NCBI GenBank assembly: GCA_018303995.1
Contig: JAGVXB010000033.1
Coordinates: forward strand, 2,486-66,485
Direction of reading: 5' to 3'
From: Candidatus Pacearchaeota archaeon
GTDB taxonomy: Archaea; Nanobdellota; Nanobdellia; Pacearchaeales; GW2011-AR1
DNA length: 64,000 nucleotides
A model generated the notes under the pieces. It saw only the letters and a program-made list of their open reading frames with translations. It did no database searches and was not told the DNA's origin. Positions 2,490 through 19,723 of this stretch are shown one piece after another. Within the stretch, counting starts at the first letter, position 1. Each line of letters opens with the position of its first letter. Position numbers and translations under genes: made by a program.

Positions 2490-2564
2490 AAATCAAATCA
2501 CCCTAAGCAGTATATAAAGATTTTAGCACTCAAGAATAAACATATAATAAATCTAATCACACAA

Positions 2565-4091: not shown

Positions 4092-4143
4092 AGGTTTAAA
4101 AGAATACCGCTAATCAAGAATAAGAATCAATATTTAGAATAAA

Positions 4144-4446: not shown

Positions 4447-4538
4447 ACAAACGTAAAGAAAAAGATATTTATATATCTTTTGAAAAAGTCAAAAATCTCA
4501 AAACAAACCTTTAAAAAACTCCTTTCACAGAAAAAACC

Positions 4539-4814: not shown

Positions 4815-4815
4815 A

Positions 4816-5049
4816 ATGAAAAGTAACAAAAAATTAATAGATTTCTTCTCTCCATCAGAAGACTTCTTTAAAATGATATTTGAAGATGAAAAAGGTAGAA
4901 AATATAAACCTTTAGAATTAACTAATCTAGGTAATAAAAGAATGTTATTTGTAGCATATCAAGATTCTAATGAAAATGGACACATCGAGCTAGAAAGAGC
5001 GCTAGAACATAATCATATAAGGGAGTATTCAAGATTAAGAATAGTCTAA
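4816..5049 (+). CDS. Hypothetical protein
   Basis: 77-aa ORF lying 1 nt after the EF-1beta stop and 1 nt before the next start, so it is tightly coupled to both. No motif recognised. Confidence 0.4.
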   Translation: MKSNKKLIDFFSPSEDFFKMIFEDEKGRKYKPLELTNLGNKRMLFVAYQDSNENGHIELERALEHNHIREYSRLRIV

Positions 5050-5050
5050 A

Positions 5051-5653: not shown

Positions 5654-6513
5654 AACACAGCCATATAAAAAAAGAAAAGCAAAGCCAATAAAAACGAAGG
5701 TGCAAATGGAATCCCATTCTTAATCAAAACCTTCTTCCCATGACGTCTAAGAAGTAAAATCTGTTCATAAGTCAGTCCAGCAAAATTCTTTCTTATTGTC
5801 TTCCCATTAACAACAACATCCTGTTCAATCCAATCTCCTTCAGTAAGCTCGCCAGGAGAAACAAGTTTAATCATACAAGATTTCTCAACCGCCTTAACAT
5901 AAACAAATAAAAACGGCATCAAAAAAATAGAAATAGAAAACGCAAAACTACTATAAAATCCGGCAAAAGGAAAAAACAGATAAAATAAAATAGCAAGTAA
6001 AAGAGATAAAATAAAATAAACCTTAATCTTATTAAAATGTTCAAAAAATGACTTCCTAAATGACGAATAATTCCGCCCAACCAAGAAAAGACTGTAAATC
6101 AAAGTGTAAACCACCCCAAAAGCAAACAAAAGTAAAACAAACCCCAATCCATAATAAATATAATCATAAAACGAGTAATAAGGAAATATTCCCCCTATTC
6201 CGAAAAGAAGCTTAGCATCTCCCCCAGCAAATACTTTAGAATAATAAAACAAATAACCCAAACCAGTAAATAGAACAATTCCAATTAAACCGTAAACAAA
6301 AAACATCAAATCATCAGAATATATCGAATAAAAAGCCCTATAAGCAAGAACAAAACCAATAAGAGAAAATGTAACCCAATTAGCAATTTCCCTAGTCCTC
6401 AAGTCTTGAACAACTGCAAAAAACACGGCAAAGAAAGCCAAAAAATACATAAACAAATATTCACTCATAACAATACTAAAAAGAGTATCTTTATAGACAT
6501 TCCTGTCATCCAC
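5650..6513 (-). CDS. Type IV prepilin/preflagellin peptidase (A24 family, FlaK/PibD/EppA-like)
   Basis: Polytopic, 287 aa. The two Asp motifs are AVVQDLRTREI and FAGGDAKLLFGIG. Confidence 0.75.
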   Translation of the reverse strand: MDDRNVYKDTLFSIVMSEYLFMYFLAFFAVFFAVVQDLRTREIANWVTFSLIGFVLAYRAFYSIYSDDLMFFVYGLIGIVLFTGLGYLFYYSKVFAGGDAKLLFGIGGIFPYYSFYDYIYYGLGFVLLLFAFGVVYTLIYSLFLVGRNYSSFRKSFFEHFNKIKVYFILSLLLAILFYLFFPFAGFYSSFAFSISIFLMPFLFVYVKAVEKSCMIKLVSPGELTEGDWIEQDVVVNGKTIRKNFAGLTYEQILLLRRHGKKVLIKNGIPFAPSFLLALLFFFYMAVF

Positions 6514-6543
6514 GTCGCAATATCCTCAGGAATGTCTATTAGA

Positions 6544-6569
6544 TAATCCTGAAAAATTCATCAGGATTA
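6544..6569. repeat. 9-bp perfect inverted repeat (TAATCCTGA / TCAGGATTA, 8-nt spacer) in a divergent intergenic region
   Basis: Read directly from the sequence. It lies between the peptidase gene (-) and the AI-2E gene (+). Confidence 0.5.
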
Positions 6570-6600
6570 GCTTTATTAATATTAGTTATCACATAATAAA

Positions 6601-7578
6601 ATGAGAAAAGAAGAGATACATCGCTACTTGCCAATAATTATCTTATTGGTATTAGTAACTATCTCTATATTTATAATAAAATCTTACATCGTAGCATTGA
6701 TAGGTGCATTCATTCTCGCATACATTTTATACCCAATTCATAAAAAACTAGAAAAAAAGATTCCAAGCTCACTTTCAGCATTAATAACTCTAATTGGAGC
6801 CATAGCAATAATATTGCTTCCAATTATCTTAGTAATAAAAGAAATAGTGCAACAAATATCTCTAGCAATCCAAAGCGGAGCAATATCTGAACTAGTGACA
6901 AAAATAGAGTCTTTAGAAATAATAAAAAAATACGGACTCAATTTAACAGACTTAACAAATAAATTTGCAGATGTAGGTATAAAAACTCTATCAGAAATAA
7001 CAATTTCAGTAGCCTCATCTATAGTCTCCATACTCATAATGGGTTTCACTATTTACTATTTACTCTTAAACTGGCCAATAATGAAAACTAAAATAAAAAA
7101 ATATATTCCTCTTAGTAACAAAGACAAATTAGTATCTGACATGGCATCCACAACTAAAAAAATAGTTCACGGCACGTTAATAATTGCAATAATAGAATCA
7201 ATAATTGCAGGAATAGGCTTCAAATTAGCTGGAATAGATTTCTATCTAATCCTAGCAACTTTAATAGGACTATTCGCATTCATTCCAGGAGGTCCAGGAA
7301 TAGTCTGGATACCCGCACTAATCATTAAAGCTCTTCAAGGAAATTATTTCCAAGCAGGAATAATATTAGCATTCGGCCTATTTATCTCATTATATCTAGA
7401 TGTAATATTAAGAACGAGAATTGCAGGAAAAGATTCAAGAGTTCATCCAGTAATAGTCCTTCTAGGAATATTAGGAGGAACCCCAATAATGGGAATAGCA
7501 GGAATAGTAGTAGGCCCACTTATACTAAGCTACACCTTAGAAATCCTAGAAGAAGTTTTGAGTGAACACCAAAACTAG
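6601..7578 (+). CDS. AI-2E family transporter (PerM/UPF0118)
   Basis: 325 aa with about 8 TM segments. The C-terminal half (GTLIIAIIESIIAGIGF...IPGGPGIVWIP...) is typical of the family. Confidence 0.75.
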   Translation: MRKEEIHRYLPIIILLVLVTISIFIIKSYIVALIGAFILAYILYPIHKKLEKKIPSSLSALITLIGAIAIILLPIILVIKEIVQQISLAIQSGAISELVTKIESLEIIKKYGLNLTDLTNKFADVGIKTLSEITISVASSIVSILIMGFTIYYLLLNWPIMKTKIKKYIPLSNKDKLVSDMASTTKKIVHGTLIIAIIESIIAGIGFKLAGIDFYLILATLIGLFAFIPGGPGIVWIPALIIKALQGNYFQAGIILAFGLFISLYLDVILRTRIAGKDSRVHPVIVLLGILGGTPIMGIAGIVVGPLILSYTLEILEEVLSEHQN

Positions 7579-7721
7579 CAAGCAGAACCATCAGCATTAT
7601 TCTTAATTTCCCTTGTCCTAAACTGCCCGCCTCTCTTATACTTATTATGCCCTCTCTGTTTCTTCTTATCATTCTTACTCTTGCGCTTACCACCAAAATA
7701 ACCATACGAATCGTCAGACAT
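7575..7721 (-). CDS. Candidate small, very basic protein (48 aa), not in the ORF track
   Basis: The sequence is MSDDSYGYFGGKRKSKNDKKKQRGHNKYKRGGQFRTREIKNNADGSAC. A TTTTATAT box lies about 20 nt upstream of the ATG, which is leaderless-promoter geometry. Its stop overlaps the convergent AI-2E stop (CTAG). Confidence 0.3.
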   Translation of the reverse strand: MSDDSYGYFGGKRKSKNDKKKQRGHNKYKRGGQFRTREIKNNADGSAC

Positions 7722-7818
7722 AAAGAAACAAAAGAAAAGAGATATAAAAAACATACCAAAAAGCTTAAATAGTGAATTTCTTTTAAATTAGTAAATAAAC
7801 TACTAAAATCAAAGAAAA

Positions 7819-8523
7819 ATGCAATTAAGCAAAAAAGAAAACAATGTATATGAAGAATTAAAAAAATTAAACTTAGAAGTCTTTACAATAAAGGACTTGA
7901 AATTAATCTTTAAGTTAGATTCAATCAAAGCATATAATATAATCAAAGCCCTTAAACGAAAAGGAGCAATCAAAAAAGAAAAAAGTATCTTTACCCTTAA
8001 AGGCACAGACCAATTCACAGTTGGAACATCTGCTCACTATCCATCTTACATCTCTCTATGGAGCGCATTAAACTATTATGGATGGAGCGATCAGACTCCT
8101 AAGAAAATTTTAATAATATCAACAAAATATGCAAAAGAAACCCGACAGTTCAAATATATAACTCTTAAAAACAAGAGATTTTTCGGTTATAATAAAATTG
8201 GAAATATAATAATTGCAGAAAAAGAAAAAGCAATAATAGATTCCATACTTTTTCCTAAATACGCTGGAGGAATAAAAGAAATATGCTCTTGTCTCAAAGA
8301 AGCATTTAACGAACTAAATAAAGAAAAATTGATAGATTATGCTCTAAAAATAGATAGTAAGGCTGTAATAAGAAGACTTGGTTTCCTATTAGAAACAAAT
8401 AATTATAAAAAAACAGCTGAATTAAAGAAAAATCTTGGTAAAGGCTATGAAAAACTTGACCCCTCATTAAAAAAGAAGAATAAACTAAATAAAGACTGGC
8501 TACTTGACATTAACACATCATGA
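7819..8523 (+). CDS. AbiEi-like antitoxin / transcriptional regulator (COG5340-type)
   Basis: 234 aa with an N-terminal wHTH (FTIKDLKLIF...AYNIIKALKRKGAIKKE). It overlaps the downstream AbiEii-like gene by 4 nt (ATGA). Confidence 0.65.
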   Translation: MQLSKKENNVYEELKKLNLEVFTIKDLKLIFKLDSIKAYNIIKALKRKGAIKKEKSIFTLKGTDQFTVGTSAHYPSYISLWSALNYYGWSDQTPKKILIISTKYAKETRQFKYITLKNKRFFGYNKIGNIIIAEKEKAIIDSILFPKYAGGIKEICSCLKEAFNELNKEKLIDYALKIDSKAVIRRLGFLLETNNYKKTAELKKNLGKGYEKLDPSLKKKNKLNKDWLLDINTS

Positions 8524-9266
8524 TAACAAGAGAAGAACTATCTGAAGCAAGTGAAAAAAGAAAAATCGGTTTATACTATGCTGAAAAAGAATATCTTCAG
8601 TATATTTTTCTCAACGCAATATCAAAATACTCAGACAAATTCTCATTTAAAGGAGGGACCTGTTTGAGAATTTGTTATGGTTTAGACAGAGCATCAGAAG
8701 ACCTTGACTTTAGCTCAACAACAAACATAAAAGAAACAAAAGAAATAGTAAATAAATGTTCAAAAGAATTTGAACACCTAAATATTAATCATCAAAAAAT
8801 AATAGAAAAAGAGCACAAAGACAATATTAGATTTGAGATTAGATTTGAAGGCCCTTTATTTTCAGGAAATCCCTCATCTACAAATACGCTGAAAATAGAC
8901 TTTAATAAACAAAAAACAATATATAAAACCGCAAAAGTAATTCAAAAAGTTTTCTCTGATGTTCCTATGTTTGTTATAATGGCGACAGATGAAAAAGAGA
9001 TTTTAGCTGAAAAAATAAGGACTCTTGCAAACAGAAAACAATCACGAGACCTCTACGATATTTGGATGCTAATCAGCAAAGGAGTAACTGCCGATAAAAA
9101 ACTTATAAATCAGAAATTAAAAGAAGAGAACAGTAACATCAAAAATATCACAATACCATCAAAAGAAGAATATGAATTAGATTTAAAGAACTTAGTCACA
9201 ACACTCCCGCCATATGAACAGGTAAAAACGGAAGTAATGAAGTTTATAGAATCTTTAAAATTATAA
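8520..9266 (+). CDS. AbiEii/AbiGii-family nucleotidyltransferase toxin (DUF1814)
   Basis: It carries the signature FKGGTCLRICYGLDRASEDLDFS, and later RDLYDIW. Confidence 0.8.
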   Translation: MITREELSEASEKRKIGLYYAEKEYLQYIFLNAISKYSDKFSFKGGTCLRICYGLDRASEDLDFSSTTNIKETKEIVNKCSKEFEHLNINHQKIIEKEHKDNIRFEIRFEGPLFSGNPSSTNTLKIDFNKQKTIYKTAKVIQKVFSDVPMFVIMATDEKEILAEKIRTLANRKQSRDLYDIWMLISKGVTADKKLINQKLKEENSNIKNITIPSKEEYELDLKNLVTTLPPYEQVKTEVMKFIESLKL

Positions 9267-9269
9267 TCG

Positions 9270-9468
9270 AAAGGGGGGTGGCAATTTGCCCCCATCCTTC
9301 AGCAAAACCTTCATCGCGCCTCCTCATATCTTTTAAGTATCCTTTAGGATCTCTCGAATCTGTAAGCACTTCAACTAGGTCAACGGCTACAAACCACCAT
9401 TCTTCATTAAACCAAGTTCTTCTTATCTTTTTATGTCAAAGTGTATCTTGATAGAACACTTTGAGCAT
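9270..9468 (-). pseudogene. Decayed BRO-N / DinD-like (phage antirepressor-type) gene fragment
   Basis: The reverse strand reads MLKVFYQDTL*. After a frame change at the A-run it reads KRTWFNEEWWFVAVDLVEVLTDSRDPKGYLKDMRRRDEGFAEGWGQIATPL. This resembles the ...W(Y/F)FS(V/A)VDV(I/V)xVLTDSxxPRxYW... core of DinD/BRO-N proteins. It has an in-frame stop, a frameshift and a truncated C-terminus. Confidence 0.5.
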
Positions 9469-9587
9469 TCAAAAATTTTAAACAAAACTCAAAAATTTTT
9501 TTATCTTGGAATATAATTAATGACTTGTCTTTGTTGGCTTCTTCATCCATCCCAATCAGCTAATTACTTAGTTTATATAATTTACAA

Positions 9588-9896
9588 CTAACTACAAACA
9601 ACTTCAGAACAATCATAATTACAATCTAAATTAAGAGAACTATTCTTACAATAAACATTCTTACCATCGACCTTAAATGGTTCGCAACAAAAAGTTCTAG
9701 AATCTTCGCCACGACAAGCAATCTCACAAGCCTGTTTAACAACATTATTTCTAGAAGTCTTCAAAACAGGCTCAGTTCCCTCTTTAAATAACCCAAACCC
9801 CTTCGTAATAAACACAACCAACCCAATAAGCACAACAATCCCTATAATTATCCATATAATTGTAGAAATCGCCATTTCCATTCCTTTTCTATTCAT
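9588..9896 (-). CDS. Pilin-like protein with class III signal peptide; Cys-rich ectodomain
   Basis: MNRKG|MEMAISTIIWIIIGIVVLIGLVVF. There are 10 Cys in the last ~60 residues. Confidence 0.55.
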   Translation of the reverse strand: MNRKGMEMAISTIIWIIIGIVVLIGLVVFITKGFGLFKEGTEPVLKTSRNNVVKQACEIACRGEDSRTFCCEPFKVDGKNVYCKNSSLNLDCNYDCSEVVCS

Positions 9897-9989
9897 ATAA
9901 AAACAAATTCAAAAGAGTTATTAAATGTAATCTAAAAAGCTAATTAAATCTATCCATAAAAACAACTCTAATTTATACCAATAATCCTA

Positions 9990-10532
9990 TTATCCATCTT
10001 CAGAAAGAATTGTTCCACCAGGCAAATCAGACAACGCAGTATCACTAACAGGAGGCGTCGTTTCAGTAGAAGGTGCTCCACCATCAATTATCACCTTACA
10101 ACTCACTTGTTTACCTGCCTTATAAGCAAGTATCTTTTCCTGTTTTGCTACTGAAACTAAACCCGCATCACTACAAGCATCAAACAAGAGATTCGCTTCA
10201 TCGCATTGCAAACCAGGGGCAGACGTATCAATATCATCTTTTTTAAGTGAGTCCATTATTGTCGGATGCCTGCAATTCACAAGTTCATTTCCAATCAGCC
10301 TATATTTACAAAAGTCAATATTAAAACCAACAGGAATATACACACTACCACAAGCCTTCGCAAGATTCTGCATCTCTCCCGTTTTATATTTTAAAAATCC
10401 AAATACGCCTTCACTAAAATTAATAACCCCTGACCCAACCAAACCGAGAAAAACAAGCGCAACCGCTGCAAGAACTATAAACCACATAATACCCTCAGCC
10501 CCCTTCTTACCCTTGACCACAATCACCATCAC
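9990..10532 (-). CDS. Pilin-like protein with class III signal peptide
   Basis: The N-terminus is ...VKGKKG|AEGIMWFIVLAAVALVFLGLV. The ectodomain has 6 Cys and a T/P/S-rich tail. Confidence 0.5.
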   Translation of the reverse strand: MMVIVVKGKKGAEGIMWFIVLAAVALVFLGLVGSGVINFSEGVFGFLKYKTGEMQNLAKACGSVYIPVGFNIDFCKYRLIGNELVNCRHPTIMDSLKKDDIDTSAPGLQCDEANLLFDACSDAGLVSVAKQEKILAYKAGKQVSCKVIIDGGAPSTETTPPVSDTALSDLPGGTILSEDG

Positions 10533-10576
10533 AACCTATAAGATAAGTTATTTATAAATCTTCTTCTATAATTAAT

Positions 10577-11047
10577 TTATACTAAATTAACTGAAATAAC
10601 TCTCTCTTTATCAAAAATAACTATCATAGAATAATTATACTTAACCTCATTTACTCCATAAAGACCATTTTCAAAAACATCATTAACAGTAAGAACATAA
10701 TTAATATTATCAAAACTAAGAGTATACTCTCCGTGAGCAAACCTAGCATAAATATTAGTACTCAGCCCTGAAAATCTCTCTCGATTGGCAATATCTTTAA
10801 CAGATTTATTAAAAGATTCTTCGAAATTATTTTTATCAGAAAGCTTTATAGCTTCAGCAACAATCTCACGAACATTCTTTTCAATAAGTTTATGCTCTGC
10901 CAAAGCTTTGCTTGTCATAGCTCTTATCTCCGCTTTGCTCTTACCCAAATCTTTTCCGAAAGTCCACATAACAAACAAAGCATTAATTACAATCATTAAA
11001 CTTAAAAGAACTATTAAAGCAGTCCCTAAATGTCCTCTACGATTCAT
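10577..11047 (-). CDS. Pilin-like protein with class III signal peptide
   Basis: MNRRG|HLGTALIVLLSLMIVINALFVMW. It overlaps the upstream gene by 4 nt. Confidence 0.55.
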   Translation of the reverse strand: MNRRGHLGTALIVLLSLMIVINALFVMWTFGKDLGKSKAEIRAMTSKALAEHKLIEKNVREIVAEAIKLSDKNNFEESFNKSVKDIANRERFSGLSTNIYARFAHGEYTLSFDNINYVLTVNDVFENGLYGVNEVKYNYSMIVIFDKERVISVNLV

Positions 11048-11538
11048 GTATTGCTCCTTTTTACAAAAATATCAATGCGATTACAAATTCTCTTCACAGA
11101 TTTTTCATCATTATAATCAACTATTTTATTAAATGCATCATAATCAGATATATCTCCATTCATATCAATATAATTATCCACGGCACCAGCCCACGATATT
11201 ATTTTAATCGAACCATCGTCATCTAGAGTATAAGACAAAATAAAAATACTTCCTCGGCCATATTCTTCAACAAAATGTTCTCTCAAAGATACCTTTAATT
11301 TTTCACCAAAATCTGCATCATCACAAAATCTATCAATAAGTGTTCCAACCTGAACAACTTCATCATTAAACACGAGATAAGTGTTCATAAAATCCTCAGG
11401 CATATTTTCGCTTATTTCATGATTCTTAGCAATAGCTCCTGCAACAATCACAAAAAGCAACATTACAATAAACATAATCACCATGCCAATTGGACTCGCA
11501 ATTGCCTGTTCCAAACTAAATTCTGCTTTTCGGTTCAT
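11044..11538 (-). CDS. Pilin-like protein with class III signal peptide
   Basis: MNRKA|EFSLEQAIASPIGMVIMFIVMLLFVIVAGAIA. It overlaps the upstream gene by 4 nt. Confidence 0.5.
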   Translation of the reverse strand: MNRKAEFSLEQAIASPIGMVIMFIVMLLFVIVAGAIAKNHEISENMPEDFMNTYLVFNDEVVQVGTLIDRFCDDADFGEKLKVSLREHFVEEYGRGSIFILSYTLDDDGSIKIISWAGAVDNYIDMNGDISDYDAFNKIVDYNDEKSVKRICNRIDIFVKRSNT

Positions 11539-11996
11539 ACTGCAACCCTCTTCACATTTTGACTGCTTCCAACTAAAAACTCATATCCTTCAGAATCAAT
11601 AGGATGACTTGCACACAAAGGCATCTCTCTATTCTTAAATCTGGCATAAAGTCCGCACCTCATTTTAAAATCTGCAACCCCAACAACAAATTCTTTGTTG
11701 TTTTTATCTTTCACATAAACAATATGTTTTCCATCCTCAATAACTGACTTGCTAATTCCACACTTTTGAAAAAAAATGTCTTCATTTAAATTGCTTAAAT
11801 CTAATTTTTCTCTTTCAAAACATTCACGCACGCTCTTCAATAAAGCCCTTGCTTCTCCTTCTCTATAATCATACCCTTTTCCAAAAAACGCGACAAGCCC
11901 TCCAACTATTCCAACAACAAGAATAACAACAAACATTGAAAAAAACACAATATATAAAATACCCACTCCAGTAACTTCTCCTCGCCTACAATTCAT
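11535..11996 (-). CDS. Pilin-like protein with class III signal peptide
   Basis: MNCRRG|EVTGVGILYIVFFSMFVVILVVGIVGGLVAF. It overlaps the upstream gene by 11 nt. Confidence 0.55.
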   Translation of the reverse strand: MNCRRGEVTGVGILYIVFFSMFVVILVVGIVGGLVAFFGKGYDYREGEARALLKSVRECFEREKLDLSNLNEDIFFQKCGISKSVIEDGKHIVYVKDKNNKEFVVGVADFKMRCGLYARFKNREMPLCASHPIDSEGYEFLVGSSQNVKRVAV

Positions 11997-12414
11997 TGCG
12001 TTGCTTCTCCTTTATTTTAAATATAAATTGCGTAGTTTCTGGACTTCCAGAAGGATTTTTTACTTCCCAATCAACAATATCTACATCATTAAAAAACCCA
12101 AAACTAGTTCCAGTGTCTTTTCTGGTGCTTACAGTAATTTGATTATTCACATTATTAACATAAATAATATCCTTAACAGGCTTACCATTTTTAATAGCAA
12201 TCATCGCAAGTTTAGTAATATCTATCTTAAACTCCATTCCAGGCTTTGCATTATTTATTAAATTAATAATTTCTTTAGAATAAAAATCCTCATAAAAAGC
12301 ACTTCCTCGACCATAAGAATTAACATACATAAAAAGCCCAATAAAAACAGAAATGCATATAGCAGTATATATCAAATTATACATCATAACATCTACATCG
12401 CCTCTTCTTTCCAT
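11986..12414 (-). CDS. Pilin-like protein with class III signal peptide
   Basis: MERRG|DVDVMMYNLIYTAICISVFIGLFMYV. Confidence 0.5.
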   Translation of the reverse strand: MERRGDVDVMMYNLIYTAICISVFIGLFMYVNSYGRGSAFYEDFYSKEIINLINNAKPGMEFKIDITKLAMIAIKNGKPVKDIIYVNNVNNQITVSTRKDTGTSFGFFNDVDIVDWEVKNPSGSPETTQFIFKIKEKQRNEL

Positions 12415-12450
12415 AATTAAACTAATAATTCAACAGATATAAAGATAACG

Positions 12451-13104
12451 TCACATTCCTGGAAGACTTATCCCATATGTTTTATCATCTTTGATATTAC
12501 AGTTCTCATCTCTTATACGCGATAAAAATTTACCGCCTTCACTTAAAGCAGTCAAAACATCATTCTTTCCACTTATTGCTGTTTGTTTCTGATCACCATA
12601 ATCATGATAAATTGAAATTTCTCCTAGTTTTTTATCCACAAGAAATCCCATTAACTTATTAATTTCAGGAATGCAATGACTTGTAATCAAACCATCAACA
12701 TTTTCAGGATCATAAGGAGAATAATTAAGCCTGCTAGAGACACTAACCTTCCTATCAATATCTTTACAATAACCAGTATCTTGACACTTAGAAACATCCC
12801 CCTGACAAATACACAAACAATTCTTATCAAAACATCTCTGAGGTTTTTCATCTGGAGGCACTTCTTTATTCCATGCGACCAAAACCCAGCCTTGAACACC
12901 TCTTAAGGCAAAAGTATTGCTCTGTCCATCAGCAAGATTCTCAATCCTCCCATTCAAATTATCTAAAAATATTCTCGCATTTCTAGCATCCTGATCCATA
13001 AAAAACAAAATCAATTTTACAGCTATAAAAATAAGTCCAACTGCAACAATTATCCCAACAATCAACGAAGTTAAAGCTTTTGCATCGCCTTTTCTAAATT
13101 TCAT
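12451..13104 (-). CDS. Pilin-like protein with class III signal peptide; Cys-rich ectodomain
   Basis: MKFRKG|DAKALTSLIVGIIVAVGLIFIAV. It contains the Cys cluster CFDKNCLCICQGDVSKCQDTGYC. Confidence 0.55.
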   Translation of the reverse strand: MKFRKGDAKALTSLIVGIIVAVGLIFIAVKLILFFMDQDARNARIFLDNLNGRIENLADGQSNTFALRGVQGWVLVAWNKEVPPDEKPQRCFDKNCLCICQGDVSKCQDTGYCKDIDRKVSVSSRLNYSPYDPENVDGLITSHCIPEINKLMGFLVDKKLGEISIYHDYGDQKQTAISGKNDVLTALSEGGKFLSRIRDENCNIKDDKTYGISLPGM

Positions 13105-14291
13105 AAATTACCTTCAATGCCTCCAGAACAAAGCTTATTTACTTCTCCAACATCCCATTTAACAGGTTTAATCAAACTACATCCAAGTTTAGAATCAGTC
13201 TCATTTTTTCCATATTCCTTACATGAAAGAAGTGAAACCTCCTGATTTTCTTCCTGAACTCCAGCAGCAGTATATCCTGCGATTGCCGAAGCACCAACAC
13301 CAACAAGAATAGCTGAAATAACTCCAACCCAACCACTTTTTACTATGCCTGCGCCAGCACCAGTGACTAAAGTCCCTCCTACAATAGCAGTTCCAGTCAA
13401 CCCTGCCGCAGTCCATCCCAACTCTCCAGGAGGTATGTCCGTCTTAATTTGCATAAATATCATCGCAATCTGATCCGTCTTAACAGAATCTTTAACGCCA
13501 GACAACGTTTTTTCCAATTCAATACGATTACTATCTACAAAACTCCTTATGCGCCCATTTGTAAATACTTCTGAATAAGTTTGACTACCACCATCAGGAA
13601 CAAATTCGGTAGAAAGATACCTGCTAAAATCAAGTCTTGAAAGAACATTTATATTTTTTTCATCAACTAACTTTTCATTCGCCTCAATCAATTTATCAGA
13701 TAACGCAACTCTAGAACAAACAATACATTTTGGTTCTATTTTCTTTATTACTTGTTCTAATCCAAGCCCGAAAAATTCCGAAATATCTCCCAATACGATT
13801 GAAGTCACTCCCCCCTCGCCTCTGAAAACATCTAACTTTCCTTCTCCAGTCATAACCCAGCAGTCATACATTGCATTTGCGTATTCTCTTTCAATAATTT
13901 TCCTAGTTTCTTTCTGATCCCCAATGTCATCATTTATCTTAACTTTAATATCTACAACATTCTCTTCCCCTGCAAATTGTTTACAATCACTTTTTTTAGA
14001 CAATCCAATAGCAGCACCAGAACCAGTAAAAAACTCCTTAGCCTTCTGAGTAACTGACTTGTCTAAAGTTATGCAAATCTTCTTAGTAAAACAGTTCAAA
14101 GGCGCTCCTCCCTGGACTATTCCAGGAAGAGTAGCTTTAGAGATAATAGAAAGTTTACACAAATCTCTTTCAGTCACATCTTTAGTCCCAAAAATACTCC
14201 AAAGAAACATTACAACAATAGCAAAACTAAGAAGAATAAGTATTAAAAGAGCTATCTGTCCTGCAGTAAATCCTCTCTTATCCATAAACAA
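13101..14291 (-). CDS. Large pilin-like/class III signal peptide protein with a C-terminal Gly-rich hydrophobic segment
   Basis: (MF)MDKRG|FTAGQIALLILILLSFAIVVMFLW. The late segment GWTAAGLTGTAIVGGTLVTGAGAGIVKSGWVGVISAILVGVGASAIAGY is hydrophobic and Gly-rich. Confidence 0.5.
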   Translation of the reverse strand: MFMDKRGFTAGQIALLILILLSFAIVVMFLWSIFGTKDVTERDLCKLSIISKATLPGIVQGGAPLNCFTKKICITLDKSVTQKAKEFFTGSGAAIGLSKKSDCKQFAGEENVVDIKVKINDDIGDQKETRKIIEREYANAMYDCWVMTGEGKLDVFRGEGGVTSIVLGDISEFFGLGLEQVIKKIEPKCIVCSRVALSDKLIEANEKLVDEKNINVLSRLDFSRYLSTEFVPDGGSQTYSEVFTNGRIRSFVDSNRIELEKTLSGVKDSVKTDQIAMIFMQIKTDIPPGELGWTAAGLTGTAIVGGTLVTGAGAGIVKSGWVGVISAILVGVGASAIAGYTAAGVQEENQEVSLLSCKEYGKNETDSKLGCSLIKPVKWDVGEVNKLCSGGIEGNL

Positions 14292-14320
14292 AACACTAAA
14301 ACCAACTTTATAATCTTAAC

Positions 14321-14437
14321 TTAACGCAATCCAAATCTCTTAAAAAGAAAATAAATAGAAGCCCCTGCAAGTATCAGAAACATAATCCACAATACAAGTT
14401 TTGTAATGCTCTCAAATGCAAAACCTTTTTTATTCAT
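14321..14437 (-). CDS. 38-aa minimal pilin-like ORF (Flp-like candidate), not in the ORF track
   Basis: MNKKG|FAFESITKLVLWIMFLILAGASIYFLFKRFGLR. Its ATG lies 1 nt after the stop of the upstream gene. Confidence 0.45.
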   Translation of the reverse strand: MNKKGFAFESITKLVLWIMFLILAGASIYFLFKRFGLR

Positions 14438-14438
14438 T

Positions 14439-15758
14439 TTATTGAACATTTGCCTCCTTACTATCTTCAAATTTAAAACTTGAATAATAATTGTCTAAAA
14501 CCTTATATGTAAATTCACTGCGAAGTGAATCATTCAAAACACTATTAAATTCTTTACCATCAATTTTTTTTAATAATTCGTTCCAACCATCAATTTTTTT
14601 ACCATTAATATAAACGCCTTCGACTGATTTATCTGAATCAAAAGTAACGGAGTTTTGCCAAAACAAGCCATCATCAGGTCTAGTTAAAAGTACAAAACCT
14701 TCGTTGAAATTTTTATTATTTAACTCCTTATAAATGCTATCAAGATATTTTACCTGTACATACAAATTAAGATCTCTATTTGAATTAATAATTGAATTTA
14801 ATTGGTCGCCACGGCTAAACCTCCAATTTTTAACACCGTTGTCTTCTTTAGAATATTTCAATATTTCAATCTTATTCCTTTCAAGAAAACTGTGCGCACT
14901 ACGTCTCAAAAATACAAATTTAATCTCTTCGGGTTCTTTAGTAATTTTTATATCATCATCTACATAATTCTTAACACCAAAACAAGACTCATTTTTCCAT
15001 TTCTCAACAGCCACTCCATAAACCGGCTCGCTCAAATCAACAAAAATATATTGACCAACTTTGCGAACAGTATACAATTTCTTACCCATTCCTTTCTTAT
15101 TCTCATCTAAATTCAACTCCAAAAACCTCTCACAATTTCCATCTTCAAGAATACTATCTCTCCAACTAATTGCTTGAACAAATTTATCTTTATACTTATT
15201 GTATTCCTGAAATGCTAAAACATAAAATGAATAATCTACTTTAACTATATCTGAAATTTTATCATTATAATAAATGGGTTCATTATAAAGATCTTTTACT
15301 TTGAATCTTTTTTTAATATGACTAGCTATTTTGAGATTATATCGATTCAGATTATCATATCCAAAATCGCCAATTTCGACGACCCAATATCTCCAATCAT
15401 TCACACTAATACTCAAAGCTTTGGGTCTCCTTTCAGAATATAGATAAAAATCTTCGATAGATTTCTTAAACAAAGCAGGCTCAAACTCATATTTTCCCAT
15501 CGGAAATAACTCGCCGTTTTTTTTAGAATTAATATCTCTCCACTCCTCACCAGTATAATACTGCAATTGATCATCTTTAAGATTCACTCCTACTATCGAA
15601 GTCCCATCGGAAATAGGCTCTCCAAAATCATCAGGAAAAAATCCAAAAAAAGAATAAATACTCTTAAACATAGGAATCTGCGATGAAAAATACAAAGCAA
15701 TAAGTAAACCTGCTAAAATGGCGGCAACAACCCAATAATGCAAACCATTCCTATTCAT
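14439..15758 (-). CDS. Large (439 aa) pilin-like/class III signal peptide protein
   Basis: The track ORF starts at 15773 (MEIWEMNRNG). I prefer ATG 15758 because it forms an ATGA overlap with the upstream mini-ORF. That start gives MNRNG|LHYWVVAAILAGLLIALYF. Confidence 0.5.
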   Translation of the reverse strand: MNRNGLHYWVVAAILAGLLIALYFSSQIPMFKSIYSFFGFFPDDFGEPISDGTSIVGVNLKDDQLQYYTGEEWRDINSKKNGELFPMGKYEFEPALFKKSIEDFYLYSERRPKALSISVNDWRYWVVEIGDFGYDNLNRYNLKIASHIKKRFKVKDLYNEPIYYNDKISDIVKVDYSFYVLAFQEYNKYKDKFVQAISWRDSILEDGNCERFLELNLDENKKGMGKKLYTVRKVGQYIFVDLSEPVYGVAVEKWKNESCFGVKNYVDDDIKITKEPEEIKFVFLRRSAHSFLERNKIEILKYSKEDNGVKNWRFSRGDQLNSIINSNRDLNLYVQVKYLDSIYKELNNKNFNEGFVLLTRPDDGLFWQNSVTFDSDKSVEGVYINGKKIDGWNELLKKIDGKEFNSVLNDSLRSEFTYKVLDNYYSSFKFEDSKEANVQ

Positions 15759-15877
15759 CTCCCAAATCTCCACAAATTCTTAAAAAATTCAAGCATACCA
15801 CTTCCCTTTTCCTTGGCAAGAATAATCAAAGCAACCAACAAAATCAAAGCTCCTATAACCATTATCCAGTCTGCCAT
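15755..15877 (-). CDS. 40-aa single-TM ORF, first gene of the pilin-like operon, not in the ORF track
   Basis: MADWIMVIGALILLVALIILAKEKGSGMLEFFKNLWRFGR. Its TGA overlaps the next ATG. Confidence 0.35.
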   Translation of the reverse strand: MADWIMVIGALILLVALIILAKEKGSGMLEFFKNLWRFGR

Positions 15878-15940
15878 ATGACTAATTTCAATTTGACCCT
15901 TTTTCCCCATCAACAACAAAACAAATACATCAATATAAAT

Positions 15941-16396
15941 CTAATCCTTTCTAATATACTTCCCCATTATTATTCCTTTTCCCCAATCATTATGCATTTT
16001 CTCTCCAGTTTTGTGATATCCAAGCTTCTCATAAAACTCAACAGCAGAAAGAACAGCAACAAGCCAGACATTTGAAAAACCCTTCAATACAGCATCCCTT
16101 TCTAAAGCACCCACAAATTCCCTCCCCAGTCCTTTTCCTTGATATTCTGGAAGTATAAAACAAGCCATTATTTCGTCATTGCGCAATGTAGCAGTTCCAG
16201 TAATTTTCTCATTATCAGTAGAGACATAAATTATTTTGTGTTCTAAATCCTCACAAAATCTTTCAGCCGTATAATAAGAAGCACTCGAATCTATTTGTTC
16301 ACGAGTATAGTTATGATTATCTCTCTCAATAATAGCCCTTCGTATTAAAGGATGTATTTCAATAATATCAGGCATTCTGAATTTTCTTATAGCCAT
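15941..16396 (-). CDS. GNAT family N-acetyltransferase
   Basis: The acetyl-CoA motif is LPEYQGKGLGREFVGALE...FYEKLGY. Confidence 0.8.
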   Translation of the reverse strand: MAIRKFRMPDIIEIHPLIRRAIIERDNHNYTREQIDSSASYYTAERFCEDLEHKIIYVSTDNEKITGTATLRNDEIMACFILPEYQGKGLGREFVGALERDAVLKGFSNVWLVAVLSAVEFYEKLGYHKTGEKMHNDWGKGIIMGKYIRKD

Positions 16397-16511
16397 TGTT
16401 CACAAAAATCAATAATACCATCTATATATAAACAATTGCAAAATCAGACAAACTTGAAATAAAGAAACATACAATTTAATAATATAAGAAACCGTAATTT
16501 TCATAAGAGGC

Positions 16512-18668
16512 ATGATGGTAACAACTGAAGAAATTCTAAAAAAATACTCCCGTAAAATAGAATCTGAAATAGGTATAAAAAAATCAACAGAAATCTATTC
16601 TCAAGACTACGAACAATTCAAACAAGACATGCTCCCAGATATGTCCAGATACAAAAGATGGACAGATTCTCTAGGAAATGCAATAAAAATAAAACTATCG
16701 GCTAAAGAAAATGCAAAAATCCAACGCCATTTAGATATAGCCCATTTAGACATAACTGCATCTCAGTCAGCATCCTTGGCACTAATAGCAATGCTTCTAA
16801 CTTTATTCGTAACTTTCACATTAGTTCTAAGCATAAATCTTCTAGGAGAATCATTTCCAATAATGCTCACATTTTTAGGATTTATCTTAAGCGGTTTTGT
16901 ATATTACTACGTTTACTCCATGCCAGACAGATTAGCAAACATATGGAGATTAAAAGCATCCTCCCAAATGATTCCAGCCATCTTATACATTGTTATCTAC
17001 ATGAAACACACTTCAAATTTAGAAAGAGCCGTCCAATTTGCCTCAGAACATCTTGAAATTCCTTTAGCACTAGATTTCAAAAAAGTTTTATATGATGTAG
17101 AAACAGGAAAATACCAAACAGTAAAACAATCTTTAGACGCCTATCTAGAAACATGGCGTGATTACTCCCCTGAGTTCATAGAATCATTTCACTTAATAGA
17201 ATCCAGCCTATACGAACCATCAGACACTCAAAGAATTAACACGTTAGAAAGAGCCTTACAAATAATTCTAGACGGCGTTTACGACAAAATGCTTACATAT
17301 TCGAGAGAGATTCGCTCACCTTTAACAAACATCTACATGCTTGGAATTATATTACCAACATTAGCTCTAGCCCTTTTGCCTCTAGCCAGCGTAGTCATAG
17401 CAAACGGCTTAAAATGGTATCATCTTATTATAATCTTTAATTTGATTATCCCATTAGGGGTTTACTTCATGACTTCTGAAATACTATTCAAACGTCCAGG
17501 AGGCTACGGAGAAAACTCAAACATTAAAAAAAATCCCCAATACTATAATTTCATTTCAAAAAAGCCATGGGCAATCGCAGGCTTAATTTGTATCCCTATA
17601 TTTATCATAGGACTATTGCCATTTTTATTTCAAAGTGATTTTATCACAAATCTCTTAAATCTAAAAAATGATTATACATTCGGCGAGTTAGGCCTATCTT
17701 TTTTTGAAGAACAACTTCTATTTGATTTCAAAAAAGTAGGAAGCAGTACAATAGGTCCATTCGGATTAGCAGGAATAATACTAAGTTTATTCATCCCTCT
17801 TTCAATAGCATTATTCTTCAGCTTAGCATACAAACTCAAAACAAAAGAAATAATAAAATCACGAAAAGAAACTAAAGAATTAGAACATGAATTCACAAGC
17901 ACTCTATTCCAATTAGGAAATCGTTTAGGCGACGGAGTTCCAGCAGAAAGAGTATTTTCAAAAGTAGCAGAATCAACTCAAGGCCAGAAAACTCAAAGTT
18001 TCTTTCAATTAGTAAATCAAAACATCCAACAATTAGGTATGCCTTTAGATGATGCAATATTCAATTCTCAAAGAGGAGCAATAATTTACTATCCATCTGC
18101 ACTCATCTCCACAAGCATGCGCATTTTAATAGAATCAGTAAAAAAAGGATTAAAAATAGCCGCAAGAGCAATGATGTCAATTTCAGACTATGTAAAAAAC
18201 ATTCAAAAAATAAATGACAGGTTAAGAGATTTATTAGCAGAAGTAGTTTCAGACATGCGCTCAAACATGGTATTTCTAGCCCCATTATTATCAGGAATAA
18301 TAGTAGGATTAACGTCAATGATTGCACTAATACTCAACAAACTAAAGAGTCTATCAAACTTAACTGGTGAAGGAGGTGCAGAAATCCCTGGATTAGGTTC
18401 AATGGGAAACATAATAGATTTATTTGATATTACTGGGATAGTCCCCCCTTATTTTGTCCAAATATCAATAGGAATCTACTTAATAGAAATAATTTTCATC
18501 TTAACAGGAACTTTAGTAACTGTAGACTCAGGAAAAGACGAATTACAAGAAAAATATGAATTATCTAGAAACCTAAAAAGAGGCTTAACATTATATCTCA
18601 TCACAACTCTCTTAAGCACAATCATGTTAACAGGCTTAGCAGCCGTAGCCCTTTCAGGATTAGGTTAA
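16512..18668 (+). CDS. FlaJ/PilC/TadC-like polytopic platform protein (two T2SS-F-like domains)
   Basis: 718 aa. Two soluble helical domains (about residues 150-270 and 450-560, e.g. ELEHEFTSTLFQLGNRLGDGVPAERVF...GMPLDDAIF) are each followed by TM clusters. It sits next to the secretion ATPase. Confidence 0.6.
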   Translation: MMVTTEEILKKYSRKIESEIGIKKSTEIYSQDYEQFKQDMLPDMSRYKRWTDSLGNAIKIKLSAKENAKIQRHLDIAHLDITASQSASLALIAMLLTLFVTFTLVLSINLLGESFPIMLTFLGFILSGFVYYYVYSMPDRLANIWRLKASSQMIPAILYIVIYMKHTSNLERAVQFASEHLEIPLALDFKKVLYDVETGKYQTVKQSLDAYLETWRDYSPEFIESFHLIESSLYEPSDTQRINTLERALQIILDGVYDKMLTYSREIRSPLTNIYMLGIILPTLALALLPLASVVIANGLKWYHLIIIFNLIIPLGVYFMTSEILFKRPGGYGENSNIKKNPQYYNFISKKPWAIAGLICIPIFIIGLLPFLFQSDFITNLLNLKNDYTFGELGLSFFEEQLLFDFKKVGSSTIGPFGLAGIILSLFIPLSIALFFSLAYKLKTKEIIKSRKETKELEHEFTSTLFQLGNRLGDGVPAERVFSKVAESTQGQKTQSFFQLVNQNIQQLGMPLDDAIFNSQRGAIIYYPSALISTSMRILIESVKKGLKIAARAMMSISDYVKNIQKINDRLRDLLAEVVSDMRSNMVFLAPLLSGIIVGLTSMIALILNKLKSLSNLTGEGGAEIPGLGSMGNIIDLFDITGIVPPYFVQISIGIYLIEIIFILTGTLVTVDSGKDELQEKYELSRNLKRGLTLYLITTLLSTIMLTGLAAVALSGLG

Positions 18669-19072
18669 GAATTGATTATTCCAAATAGTTCTTCAGGTTT
18701 TATTATTTTAATACCTCTAAATTCTTTTAATATTAGCAAATGCCTTAAGTCATAAGTTATAATAAATTCAGAGTTAGATACCACAGCACACTCCAAAATC
18801 TTATTATCATCAGAATCCTCTTTTATTACCTCTATTTTCTCAATTGGTTGAACGAGCTTAGCAAACATCATCACAAAAGGAATAATTTCCTGAATTTCTA
18901 AGTAAGAATAATCAAAATCTCTCATAAGAATTCCACTAAATTCATCAATTATCTCTTTACTAACAAAAAGAGGGTCGTTTCTTTCTATAAGTTTAACAAG
19001 TAATTTATTAGCAACACTATAATCCCATTGCGTAGCAGAAATAAGAAAATTTGTATCTAATGTAATCCTCAT
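18665..19072 (-). CDS. vapC: PIN-domain toxin (VapC-like)
   Basis: MRITLDTNFLISA...DDNKILECAV...IITYDLRHL has the acidic PIN residues. It overlaps the upstream antitoxin gene by 4 nt. Confidence 0.75.
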   Translation of the reverse strand: MRITLDTNFLISATQWDYSVANKLLVKLIERNDPLFVSKEIIDEFSGILMRDFDYSYLEIQEIIPFVMMFAKLVQPIEKIEVIKEDSDDNKILECAVVSNSEFIITYDLRHLLILKEFRGIKIIKPEELFGIINS

Positions 19073-19350
19073 AAGTTTTTAATTTTAGATTTTCTGTATG
19101 CATGAACAAGATCATCTACATCACTCTCTTTTATTCCTAATTTTTCAGCCCTTTTCGCACCATTAGCAGCTATTTTTTGCAAGTTTCTTATTAACTCTTC
19201 TTTAGAAGGCACTTCTATTTTCTTTAGGACTATGGAGTCTCCACTACTTAAGACTACAAAAACACTTCCTTCATCAGCATTTACTTCTTCCCTTACTTTT
19301 TGAGGAATTACAATCTGTCCTTTTGAAGACATTCTAACAGTTTCAACCAT
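19069..19350 (-). CDS. vapB: AbrB/SpoVT-type antitoxin (VapB-like)
   Basis: MSSKGQIVIPQKVREEVNADEGSVFVV is a swapped-hairpin AbrB motif. Confidence 0.8.
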   Translation of the reverse strand: MVETVRMSSKGQIVIPQKVREEVNADEGSVFVVLSSGDSIVLKKIEVPSKEELIRNLQKIAANGAKRAEKLGIKESDVDDLVHAYRKSKIKNL

Positions 19351-19411
19351 GTAAGAAAGTAAGATATGCTTACTTATAAATCTTTCGAATTAATAAAAAT
19401 AAAATCAAACC

Positions 19412-19723
19412 CTAAAACTTCATCTGAGGAGTCTGAGGTTCTATATTAGCAATTCTTCCATCTAAAACTCCAATTATGACTTCTTCTTCAGCATATCCAT
19501 TTACATAAGCTTCTCTAAGTGAAGGATGAAGTTCATTAACATCAACTTTTCTCCCATAAAAAGTTTCAGGAAAAGATTCCTTTCGTCCAAATGGTCCATA
19601 TTTAGGCAAATCAGTAGAATTATTCCTATCAAAACCGCAATAAGCAATTCCTGCTAATCCAATTAAACCTGCAAAAACAAGTCCTAAATTTCTTTTATTT
19701 TTCATACTAAATCTTCCTAACAT
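19412..19723 (-). CDS. Small N-terminally anchored protein
   Basis: MKNKRNLGLVFAGLIGLAGIAYCGF. It overlaps the 3' end of the ATPase gene by 17 nt. Confidence 0.4.
   Translation of the reverse strand: MLGRFSMKNKRNLGLVFAGLIGLAGIAYCGFDRNNSTDLPKYGPFGRKESFPETFYGRKVDVNELHPSLREAYVNGYAEEEVIIGVLDGRIANIEPQTPQMKF

Follow-up and report, generated by a model that had tools for sequence, protein, structure and literature searches.

We find that eleven successive genes of a tiny groundwater archaeon, a Pacearchaeota-like member of the DPANN, very probably constitute an operon that encodes the subunits of an archaeal type IV filament (T4F) machine. The genes, here called A to K, occupy positions 9588-15910 on the minus strand of the window, the 64,000-nucleotide stretch of DNA that we analyzed. 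Their products share a common N-terminal tag, M-x(1-8)-[KR][KR]-[GA], which is followed by a hydrophobic helix of 19-25 residues. The best reading is that these are class III signal peptides, carried by one or more major pilins and a conserved set of minor pilins. The first-pass annotation had listed ten successive tagged genes. All ten N-termini are present where it placed them and the run is real, but the count is eleven, since A lies directly upstream of the listed ten.

Locus and assembly machinery

Genes A to K are co-oriented and tightly, translationally coupled. Four pairs overlap by 4 nt (A/B, D/E, G/H, and H/I), with A, the first gene of the operon, running into the start of B. F and G overlap by 11 nt, B and C are separated by 1 nt, and 93 nt lie between J and K, the latter having a TATA-like box ~27 nt upstream of its ATG. 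The operon sits between an ATPase/platform gene pair and a peptidase gene.

The peptidase gene (5650-6513, minus strand) encodes a 287-aa A24 aspartic prepilin peptidase of the FlaK/PibD type, as the first-pass annotation had proposed, and is the predicted processing enzyme. It matches Pfam PF01478 (E = 1.2e-9), NCBIfam FlaK (1.4e-10), and the PDB structure of FlaK, 3s0x (3.8e-6), with VQD37 and GGD99 aligning with the two catalytic Asp motifs. No other A24 gene was found in the assembly, and in congeners, too, the peptidase gene flanks the operon. The ATPase (19707-21965, minus strand) is a 752-aa secretion/assembly ATPase (T2SSE) of the FlaI/TadA/CpaF type with a long N-terminal extension. 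It is recognized by Pfam PF00437 (8.2e-14) and by the NCBIfam models TadA (2.3e-35) and FlaI (1e-32), and its PDB matches are afGspE 2oap (5.8e-27), CpaF (5e-24), and FlaI (8.6e-16).

The platform protein (16512-18668, plus strand) is a divergent polytopic membrane protein of the PilC/GspF/TadC type, with 718 aa and approximately nine predicted transmembrane segments. Pfam T2SSF matches it at sub-threshold level only (E = 0.017, residues 467-593), and no internal repeat is detectable. Its AF2 model (pLDDT 80.6) has PilC of 3jc8 as the top Foldseek match and aligns with the EpsF cytoplasmic domain at probability 1.00, TM 0.70-0.72, and about 3 A. The platform gene is always next to the ATPase gene in the loci compared and is present in 299 of the 301 sampled genomes of our phylum sample; the system is therefore the lineage's core filament system. 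Contig C23 of the same genome carries another, separate locus that is Epd-like, in which two T2SSF genes accompany pilins that read KGQISLEY.

The occurrence of the platform-ATPase pair in nearly every genome of a reduced-genome lineage points to a core physiological role, which could also be that of a short pseudopilus or piston, built by the same machinery and processing, instead of a long adhesive pilus. Such a T2SS- or competence (Com)-like structure would serve DNA uptake or carry material across the envelope or into the zone of host contact. The priming sets of T2SS, Com, and T4aP comprise a small abundant-type pilin and several minor pilins, and the operon is comparable in having one small abundant-type pilin family and at least five minor pilins. 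Furthermore, groundwater ultra-small cells have and express pilin and competence genes (PMC9938205). However, we found no DNA-binding or ComEC-like partner within the locus, an outer membrane and secretin are not relevant to archaea, and nothing in the sequences discriminates filament length. We thus regard a pseudopilus as possible, though rather unlikely.

The N-terminal motif and its conservation

According to the published archaeal rule, class III signal peptides have G, A, or S at -1, a charged residue at -2, and an H-domain after the site (PMC4371748). As read from the translations, the N-termini of A to K fit this rule, the one exception in the motif being B, which has Asn instead of Lys/Arg at -2. 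All basic leaders are 5-10 residues long, and each protein has an N-terminal hydrophobic segment (19-residue Kyte-Doolittle mean 1.8-3.2). The class III (prepilin peptidase) reading of the first-pass annotation is thus supported by G/A at -1, K/R at -2, the H-domain, and the adjacent A24 peptidase.

Among ~1094 ORF-defined genes of at least 60 aa in the 887-kb assembly, 52 (4.8%) passed a loose version of the motif. Under this definition, the cluster contributes a run of eight genes, A and C falling below the length limit and B being excluded by its Asn at -2; in 10,000 shuffles, runs reached at most five. Runs such as that of A to K are not chance products.

Conservation was surveyed in 131 ortholog instances from 20 loci, of which 101 passed the strict motif; in most of the other 30, the motif is present behind a mis-called longer leader. 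Position -1 is G in 96 and A in 16 cases, and position -2 is K in 73 and R in 38, tallies that include the window's own genes. The G/A site, whose loss from orthologs had been set as a refutation test, is thus retained in most of them. A small number of remote orthologs of C, E, and G begin straight at the helix and have no basic leader. Processing may be dispensable in these proteins, or they may be membrane-anchored assembly factors.

These leaderless orthologs would also suit ordinary uncleaved signal anchors, whose basic residues merely follow the positive-inside rule and whose products form a membrane-bound complex and no filament. All of the proteins have a single N-terminal TM-like helix behind K/R, and D has a second, Gly-rich hydrophobic stretch (residues 297-348). 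To compare the cluster with other N-terminally anchored proteins, we read genome-wide the residue right after the last K/R ahead of the N-terminal hydrophobic segment. In the cluster, 8 of 9 genes have G or A at this position, against 35 of 222 (16%) elsewhere in the genome, a background that includes the genome's other pilins. The position stays G or A across orthologs while the flanking residues vary, the leaders are uniform in length, and the peptidase, ATPase, and platform genes flank the operon in conserved synteny. Signal anchors are therefore an improbable explanation.

The subunit repertoire

None of A to K matches Pfam Pilin_N, Class_IIIsignal, or any NCBIfam pilin model, nor any other Pfam or NCBIfam family, and their homologs are labeled solely "hypothetical protein". 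All are encoded on the minus strand (below, a slash marks the predicted cleavage site). Two are mini-pilin-like. A (15755-15910, MGKKG/QIEISHMADW, ORF and ATG start read) has 51 aa and a mature form of ~46 aa that lacks a globular domain. Orthologs occur in 13 of the 20 related loci and retain the [KR][GA] site together with an acidic residue (around +4 to +6) and a Trp (around +10), and the family is recognized in further orders. C (14321-14437, MNKKG/FAFESITKLVLW, with F at +1) has 38 aa, and its mature form of ~33 aa consists of a helix and a basic tail. Seven orthologs have 37-43 aa, two distant ones being among those that lack the leader. At this length, C falls under the usual ORF cut-offs.

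The largest member, B (14439-15758, MNRNG/LHYW, 439 aa), has orthologs within the genus only, most with K/R at -2; it too has no Pfam or NCBIfam match. D (13101-14285, MDKRG/FTAGQ, 394 aa) is the most conserved subunit, being present in 49 of 61 relatives, and its alignment has 10 invariant Cys as well as a GGIEGNL conserved at the C terminus. All of its 45 database homologs are unnamed or "hypothetical protein" and without a Pfam domain. In its AF2 model (pLDDT 71), a long N-terminal helix (8-32 and 35-52) precedes an alpha/beta domain, a predicted layout that is pilin-like; the model has no PDB fold match (best E = 1.7). E (12451-13104, MKFRKG/DAKAL, 217 aa, 8 Cys) has orthologs that span the order and class, some of the distant ones leaderless. 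The remaining mid-sized proteins are F (11986-12414, MERRG/DVDVM, 142 aa), G (11535-11996, MNCRRG/EVTGV, 153 aa), H (11044-11538, MNRKA/EFSLE, 164 aa), and I (10577-11047, MNRRG/HLGTA, 156 aa). H has Ala at -1 and its orthologs carry G, while G and A alternate at this position among orthologs of I.

K (9588-9896, MNRKG/MEMAISTIIW, 102 aa) has a small Cys-rich head with 8 Cys and is a candidate major pilin. Its family is recognizable class-wide, often in two or three copies. J (9990-10529, MVIVVKGKKG/AEGIM, 179 aa) is a paralog of K with a C-terminal extension, and is split into two genes in two related loci (L014 and L017). Translation of J most likely begins with the ATG at 10529, judging from orthologs that start MVIV. 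The first-pass annotation described the proteins as unrelated downstream of the helix. This stands for the set in general, but not for J and K, the sole pair related past the helix (hhalign 96%). Their alignment has four invariant Cys, and the helix is the best-conserved part of the family. The best PDB matches of the K/J profile are archaeal flagellin N-termini, although these are not significant (E = 0.26). The conserved Cys sets of D, E, J, and K would be consistent with extracellular domains.

The order ATPase, platform, A to K, peptidase is kept in all six congeneric loci. In other orders, there are blocks of 8-14 class III genes that include the D, A, E, and K families and either adjoin the ATPase-platform pair or stand displaced from it. 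Each of A to K constitutes a distinct orthologous family and keeps the same position in a conserved operon, which bears out the "minor-pilin domains" offered by the first-pass annotation. Its other option, "diverse cargo", is not supported, because the proteins have no enzyme or binding-protein domains and the gene content of the operon shows no turnover among relatives. That option corresponds to a bindosome-like display, in which the class III signal is an export tag shared by functionally diverse ectodomains other than pilins, for example those of binding proteins or enzymes. The ectodomains (33 to 434 residues) are indeed mutually unrelated outside the J/K pair, and class III signals occur widely on archaeal substrate-binding proteins (PMC13705601). 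However, Pfam and NCBIfam searches found no binding-protein, enzyme, or transporter domain in any member, the locus has no ABC transporter, and most members are small (102-217 aa). Families that keep the same order genus-wide and are recognizable class-wide behave as structural subunits and not as swappable cargo, so we consider such a display very unlikely. Class I Sec signal peptides, cut behind the hydrophobic region to release soluble secreted products, share a superficially similar n-region and h-region architecture but are scarcely credible here, given hydrophobic segments of TM length (19-25 residues), a helix that is better conserved than the rest of the protein in families such as K/J, and the fact that nothing of A or C would remain after such cleavage.

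Relation to known filaments and proposed assembly

Among the systems closest to this locus, the Epd pilus of Methanococcus maripaludis ("system 1" of the archaeal T4F) is likewise encoded by a single multigene operon, of 11 genes, with several class III signal-peptide pilins, an ATPase of the TadA/CpaF/FlaI type, a platform, and a dedicated peptidase (PMC4858521; PMC13705601), and its major pilin, like A and C, has no globular domain. In contrast, Epd has two small platform genes where we find one 718-aa gene, its peptidase is the large EppA and not a FlaK/PibD-like enzyme, its substrates have a conserved +1 Gln that only A has here (PMC4371748), and the pilin sets lack sequence similarity. 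Bacterial Tad/Flp systems also have very short pilins with little beyond the helix and a dedicated A24 peptidase that lacks a methyltransferase domain, and the solved structures closest to the ATPase include CpaF. They differ in that the archaeal locus has no secretin or outer-membrane part, no Flp motif (G/xxxxEY), one fused or divergent platform protein instead of TadB plus TadC, and far more numerous and larger pilin-like genes.

The bacterial T4aP, T2SS, and Com sets combine one shaft subunit with four to six co-transcribed, dissimilar minor (pseudo)pilins, which have only the N-terminal signal and helix in common and sometimes carry large extra domains. Here, there are eleven members instead of five or six, Glu is not fixed at +5, the peptidase lacks an N-methylation domain, and folds are unrelated as far as tested (D). 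In the Sulfolobus bindosome (Bas), a broad-range PibD processes class III signal peptides on substrate-binding proteins and others with differing ectodomains; the present locus differs in its conserved subunit order and in lacking the binding-protein domains and ABC transporter.

We propose that all eleven proteins are synthesized with class III signal peptides, and that their helices would enter the membrane with the C-terminal part outside. The A24 peptidase would then cleave after G/A at the cytoplasmic face, and the ATPase, acting on the PilC-like platform, would lift the mature subunits from the membrane, their N-terminal helices packing into the filament core. A single small subunit, or a small number of them, would build the shaft, the candidates being the K/J family or, by likeness to Flp/EpdE-type pilins, the domain-less A and C. 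B, D, E, F, G, H, and I, which are larger, rich in Cys, and unique in fold, would act as minor pilins of low abundance, priming assembly and making up a tip or adhesive complex.

The mechanism is an ordinary one, and it is the subunit repertoire that has no annotation. A functional analogy is provided by the type IV pili of Saccharibacteria, CPR episymbionts that are also ultrasmall and host-dependent, in which T4P genes are nearly universal and implicated in binding the host (PMC11623550). That system is bacterial (PilA, PilB, PilC, PilD, and PilT), is not homologous at the pilin level, and includes a retraction ATPase, of which we found none in the archaeal locus. In an ultrasmall, host-dependent archaeon, a filament of this kind would most plausibly mediate contact with host cells or surfaces.

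Eleven genes with class III-type N-termini

Eleven consecutive pilin-like genes lie on the minus strand at 9588-15910, here lettered A to K in order of transcription and defined by ORF listing of positions 9300-16100 together with direct reading of three start regions. Their packing is operon-like (slashes in the N-termini mark predicted cleavage sites). Gene A (15755-15910, 51 aa, MGKKG/Q) overlaps B (14439-15758, 439 aa, MNRNG/L) by 4 nt, and a single nucleotide separates B from C (14321-14437, 38 aa, MNKKG/F). After a gap of 35 nt comes D (13101-14285, 394 aa, MDKRG/F), which overlaps E (12451-13104, 217 aa, MKFRKG/D) by 4 nt. A further 36 nt precede F (11986-12414, 142 aa, MERRG/D), which shares 11 nt with G (11535-11996, 153 aa, MNCRRG/E). 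Overlaps of 4 nt then join G to H (11044-11538, 164 aa, MNRKA/E) and H to I (10577-11047, 156 aa, MNRRG/H). The last two genes, J (9990-10529, 179 aa, MVIVVKGKKG/A) and K (9588-9896, 102 aa, MNRKG/M), are preceded by wider gaps of ~47 and 93 nt. The start of J is most likely the ATG at 10529, one codon after a GTG, because its orthologs begin MVIV. The ATGs of A, J, and K are each preceded, at a distance of ~25-30 nt, by a TATA-like box; this is weak evidence, since the genome is 68% A+T.

The first-pass annotation had listed ten of these N-termini, those of B to K, and had read them as class III (prepilin peptidase) signals. All ten are confirmed, and the block grows to eleven with gene A, which lies about 150 nt past the end of the interval then covered (9588-15758). 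The archaeal class III rule includes a charged residue at -2, usually K or R (PMC4371748). Lys or Arg occupies -2 in 10 of the 11 proteins (B has Asn), and the residue at -1, where G, A, or S is expected ahead of the hydrophobic domain, is Gly in ten and Ala in one. Leaders are short, at 5-10 residues, and their removal would leave the ~20-residue hydrophobic domain in place. Each protein has one hydrophobic N-terminal 19-mer (mean KD 1.8-3.2) starting 1-14 residues past the site; D has a second, weaker, Gly-rich one near residue 310.

The clustering of this signature exceeds chance. A loose version of the motif, M-x(0-6)-[KR]-[GA] followed by a hydrophobic 16-mer, occurs in 52 of the ~1094 ORF-defined genes of 60 aa or more in the assembly (4.8%; 886,667 bp, 38 contigs). 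The block contains a run of eight such genes, against a longest run of five in 10,000 shuffles. Among proteins with an N-terminal hydrophobic segment, Gly or Ala directly follows the last Lys or Arg in 8 of 9 block genes, compared with 35 of 222 elsewhere in the genome (16%; the genome's other pilins are counted in this background). For a genome this small, the share of candidate class III proteins, roughly 35 in ~1000 genes, is high.

Orthologs retain the site. We looked for loss of the G/A position, which would count against a class III signal, in 131 ortholog instances, and the position is kept, so the first-pass reading stands on this point. The strict motif is passed by 101 instances; across these and the window genes, -1 is G in 96 and A in 16, and -2 is K in 73, R in 38, and N in one. 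Positions +1 to +5 vary among orthologs, with D and E frequent. Most of the 30 failing instances have the motif behind an over-long predicted leader, and a few carry Y, F, I, N, or E at -2.

A small number of distant C, E, and G orthologs start straight at the helix, with no basic leader or [KR][GA] site. That a few lineages have lost the leader is a genuine complication for the class III reading: either processing is dispensable there, or the start codons are misassigned. Such leaderless orthologs occur in six loci from related genomes (L014:11039-11659, L017:8498-9169, L021:8711-9202, L022:11352-11864, L025:11005-11106, and L028:9207-9308), with N-termini such as MEVNEMLGFVIAV... and METQTLVKLIII... 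Taken over the whole set, the motif rules and the conservation of the sites support the pilin reading of the N-termini, cleavage itself being predicted.

Predicted filament machinery in the window and the genome

In the textbook mechanism, proteins with class III signals are cleaved by an A24 peptidase and assembled with the drive of an ATPase. Downstream of K, the minus-strand gene at 5650-6513 encodes a 287-aa A24 prepilin peptidase (PF01478, 1.2e-9; FlaK, 1.4e-10) whose D37 (VQDLRTREI) and D99 (AGGDAKL) fall on both catalytic motifs of FlaK (3s0x). The minus-strand gene at 19707-21965 encodes a 752-aa T2SSE ATPase (PF00437, 8.2e-14; TadA, 2.3e-35; FlaI, 1e-32). Its nearest structures are afGspE (2oap), CpaF, and FlaI. 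It belongs to the PilB/FlaI/TadA family of assembly ATPases.

Upstream of A, a plus-strand gene (16512-18668) encodes a 718-aa protein with about nine transmembrane segments. Its match to the platform family T2SSF (PF00482) is sub-threshold (residues 467-593; E = 0.017; 15.5 bits against a cut-off of 25.2), and its profile found no match among PDB sequences. An AlphaFold model built from 15 orthologs (pLDDT 80.6) gave as its top Foldseek match PilC of the T4aP machine model 3jc8, with global E-values of 0.2 or worse, and aligned with the EpsF cytoplasmic domain at probability 1.00, a target-normalised TM of 0.70-0.72, and ~3 A rmsd. On this model we treat the protein as a putative divergent platform of PilC/GspF type. 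Comparison of its halves with hhalign found no internal repeat, so we claim only one GspF-like domain.

Other genes are interspersed. An AbiEi/AbiEii toxin-antitoxin pair (7819-9266; Pfam, 7e-6 and 9e-30) lies between K and the genes for an AI-2E-family transporter (6601-7578) and the peptidase. Between the platform and ATPase genes are a PIN-domain-like gene (18665-19072) and an AbrB-like antitoxin gene (19069-19350), both named from their translations. A 103-aa ORF (19412-19723) has a 17-nt overlap with the ATPase gene at the stop of the latter. It encodes an N-terminal anchor (MKNKRNLGLVFAGLIGLAGIAYCGF...) that lacks a class III site, and none of the 20 related loci has a homolog of the ORF. 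A GNAT acetyltransferase gene (15941-16396) separates A from the platform gene and, of the congeners, only L015 has one at the equivalent place. A role for it in N-terminal acetylation of the subunits is conceivable, purely as speculation.

The genome has four T2SSE ATPases, on contigs C38, C23, C31, and C19, and only one detectable A24 peptidase. The single enzyme probably serves all the type IV filament (T4F) systems of the genome, as PibD does. Three further T4F loci are present in the 0.89-Mb genome. That on C23 (~250-11400) resembles Epd and has two T2SSF platform genes, pilins reading KGQISLEY, and a gene of 260 aa; those on C31 (~9800-19500) and C19 (~6200-8747) have Pilin_N-type pilins reading 'RGVSPVIATVLL'. 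The platforms of these other loci match T2SSF at ~1e-15.

The locus described here differs from Epd, or T4F system 1, which is defined by two platform genes, substrates with Gln at +1, and a large EppA-type peptidase (PMC4371748 and PMC13705601). Here there is one 718-aa platform gene, +1 is Gln in A only, and the peptidase is FlaK-like, with 287 aa.

Relationships and folds of the subunits

The first-pass annotation had described the proteins as apparently unrelated downstream of the helix. Profile-profile comparison, run on the regions of B and D to K that follow the helix, bears this out for every pair but one: J and K are related (96%), and all other pairs fall below 2%. Pfam and NCBIfam scans of A to K returned noise only, with no family match. 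Neither Pilin_N (PF07790) nor Class_IIIsignal (PF04021) matched any of the eleven (E up to 1 for A, B, and D to K; up to 0.1 for C). As positive controls, other pilins of the same genome matched Pilin_N at 1.3e-4 and 7e-3 and Class_IIIsignal at 0.01.

Ten cysteines are invariant in D, and its C-terminal GGIEGNL is conserved. In a pilin fold, a long N-terminal helix packs on a C-terminal domain that is usually rich in beta structure. The predicted model of D (pLDDT 71) opens with a long, kinked helix (residues 8-32 and 35-52) and continues into an alpha/beta domain; Foldseek found no meaningful or pilin match for this model in the PDB (best E = 1.7). Between two well-modelled parts of the Cys-rich ectodomain, residues 297-348 form a conserved Gly/Ala-rich hydrophobic stretch (pLDDT ~30), which may be either a flexible linker or a hairpin that re-enters the membrane.

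In the K/J family, four cysteines are invariant. The family was put together from the genome loci, because a word-index search with K yielded only four homologs. Searched against PDB sequences, its profile placed archaeal flagellin N-termini on top, at non-significant scores. In two congeners, J is divided between two genes (L014:13721-14625 and L017:5765-6645): the first is a K-like pilin gene, and the one downstream of it encodes the C-terminal domain of J with its own Lys-rich N-terminus and helix. K itself is small, set off by its intergenic gap, and often multi-copy in relatives.

Proteins A and C are helix-only, as are the Flp-type and EpdE-type major pilins; they and K are candidates for the shaft subunit. 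The larger subunits are mutually unrelated, Cys-rich, and order-conserved, in which they resemble minor pilins or tip components. The first-pass annotation had proposed diverse cargo or minor-pilin domains on a shared signal. Its cargo alternative would resemble the bindosome, in which substrate-binding proteins carry class III signals. Pfam and NCBIfam found no such domains in A to K, there are no associated ABC transporter genes among the scanned locus ORFs, and the subunits are order-conserved; cargo is thus not supported. Recent tandem duplication as the origin of the set is rejected, as J and K are the sole related post-helix pair. Explanations of the region as CRISPR-like, mobile-element, or Rfam RNA sequence were considered and rejected; the window has no Rfam and no tRNA matches.

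Distribution among relatives and significance for DPANN archaea

We compared 20 kb around the D homolog in 20 relatives. Six congeneric loci have the full order of ATPase, platform, (GNAT), A to K, (AI-2E), and peptidase. The AbrB/PIN and AbiE modules are missing from these places in the congeners, which identifies them as insertions; in the congeneric locus L016, the platform gene directly abuts the ATPase gene. The AbrB-like/PIN-like pair has no homolog in any of the 20 related loci and is thus an insertion specific to the source genome. Recognisable counterparts of A, C, D, E, F, G, and K persist at the level of the family and of the order. In other orders, the ATPase and platform genes always adjoin. 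The pilin block is next to them in four loci (L035, L036, L037, and L043); in L046 to L049 it lies apart, with 8-14 class III genes that include the D, A, E, and K families.

D occurs in 49 of 61 relatives and in 43 of 151 genomes of a class-level sample, among which are almost all genomes of its own family and order. At NCBI its homologs are labelled 'hypothetical protein', under 'Candidatus Pacearchaeota archaeon' or 'Nanoarchaeota archaeon', and a scan of genome contigs with D returned one named relative only. The DNA is found in groundwater and soil metagenomes; among RNA runs, none containing the locus was found. The source organism is accordingly a DPANN archaeon. The platform is unusually conserved, with an identity of 51-83% within the order and of ~40% along the entire protein in 299 of 301 genomes of a phylum-wide sample; the ATPase-platform pair is present in 299 of 301. 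At the same distances, the pilin families have diverged too far to be recognised.

These results support the identification of the A to K locus as a T4F locus whose subunits carry predicted class III signal peptides. The kind of system is already known; its subunit families are unannotated, and it is near-universal in its lineage. Models of Pfam, NCBIfam, and arCOG type fail to detect the subunit genes, and surveys consequently call DPANN filament loci incomplete or scattered.

DPANN archaea are abundant, uncultivated, and dependent on physical contact with a host. To our knowledge, the surface structures that make this contact are largely unknown at the gene level. DPANN genomes are routinely credited with 'type IV pili (FlaIJK)' (PMC8561730), and ultra-small cells from groundwater are reported to bear pili (PMC9938205). 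For one nanoarchaeal clade of ATPases, Makarova et al. 2016 were unable to name the cognate pilins. Sivabalasarma and Albers 2026 (PMC13705601) describe an ordered T4F locus as rare in DPANN, with ATPase and platform genes adjoining and pilins scattered and mostly of system 1 (Epd-like). The present locus is ordered, with pilins that escape arCOG- and Pfam-type models.

We tentatively propose, with somewhat less confidence than doubt, that the operon is the previously unidentified subunit set of a T4F system near-universal in the sampled Pacearchaeota/Woesearchaeota-type DPANN class, and that this system builds a host-contact or exchange organelle of obligate symbionts. The set would comprise at least seven fast-evolving pilin families without detectable similarity to known pilins, among them a pair of mini-pilins that consist of the helix alone and a Cys-rich subunit of 394 aa that matches no known fold. 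If true, two published gaps would be filled: the pilins sought by Makarova et al. 2016 and the ordered locus of Sivabalasarma and Albers 2026. The block can be recognised from the class III signature together with the families D, A, E, and K, and offers a concrete gene set for metaproteomic detection of mature N-termini, for identification of filaments by antibody or cryo-ET, and for better annotation models.
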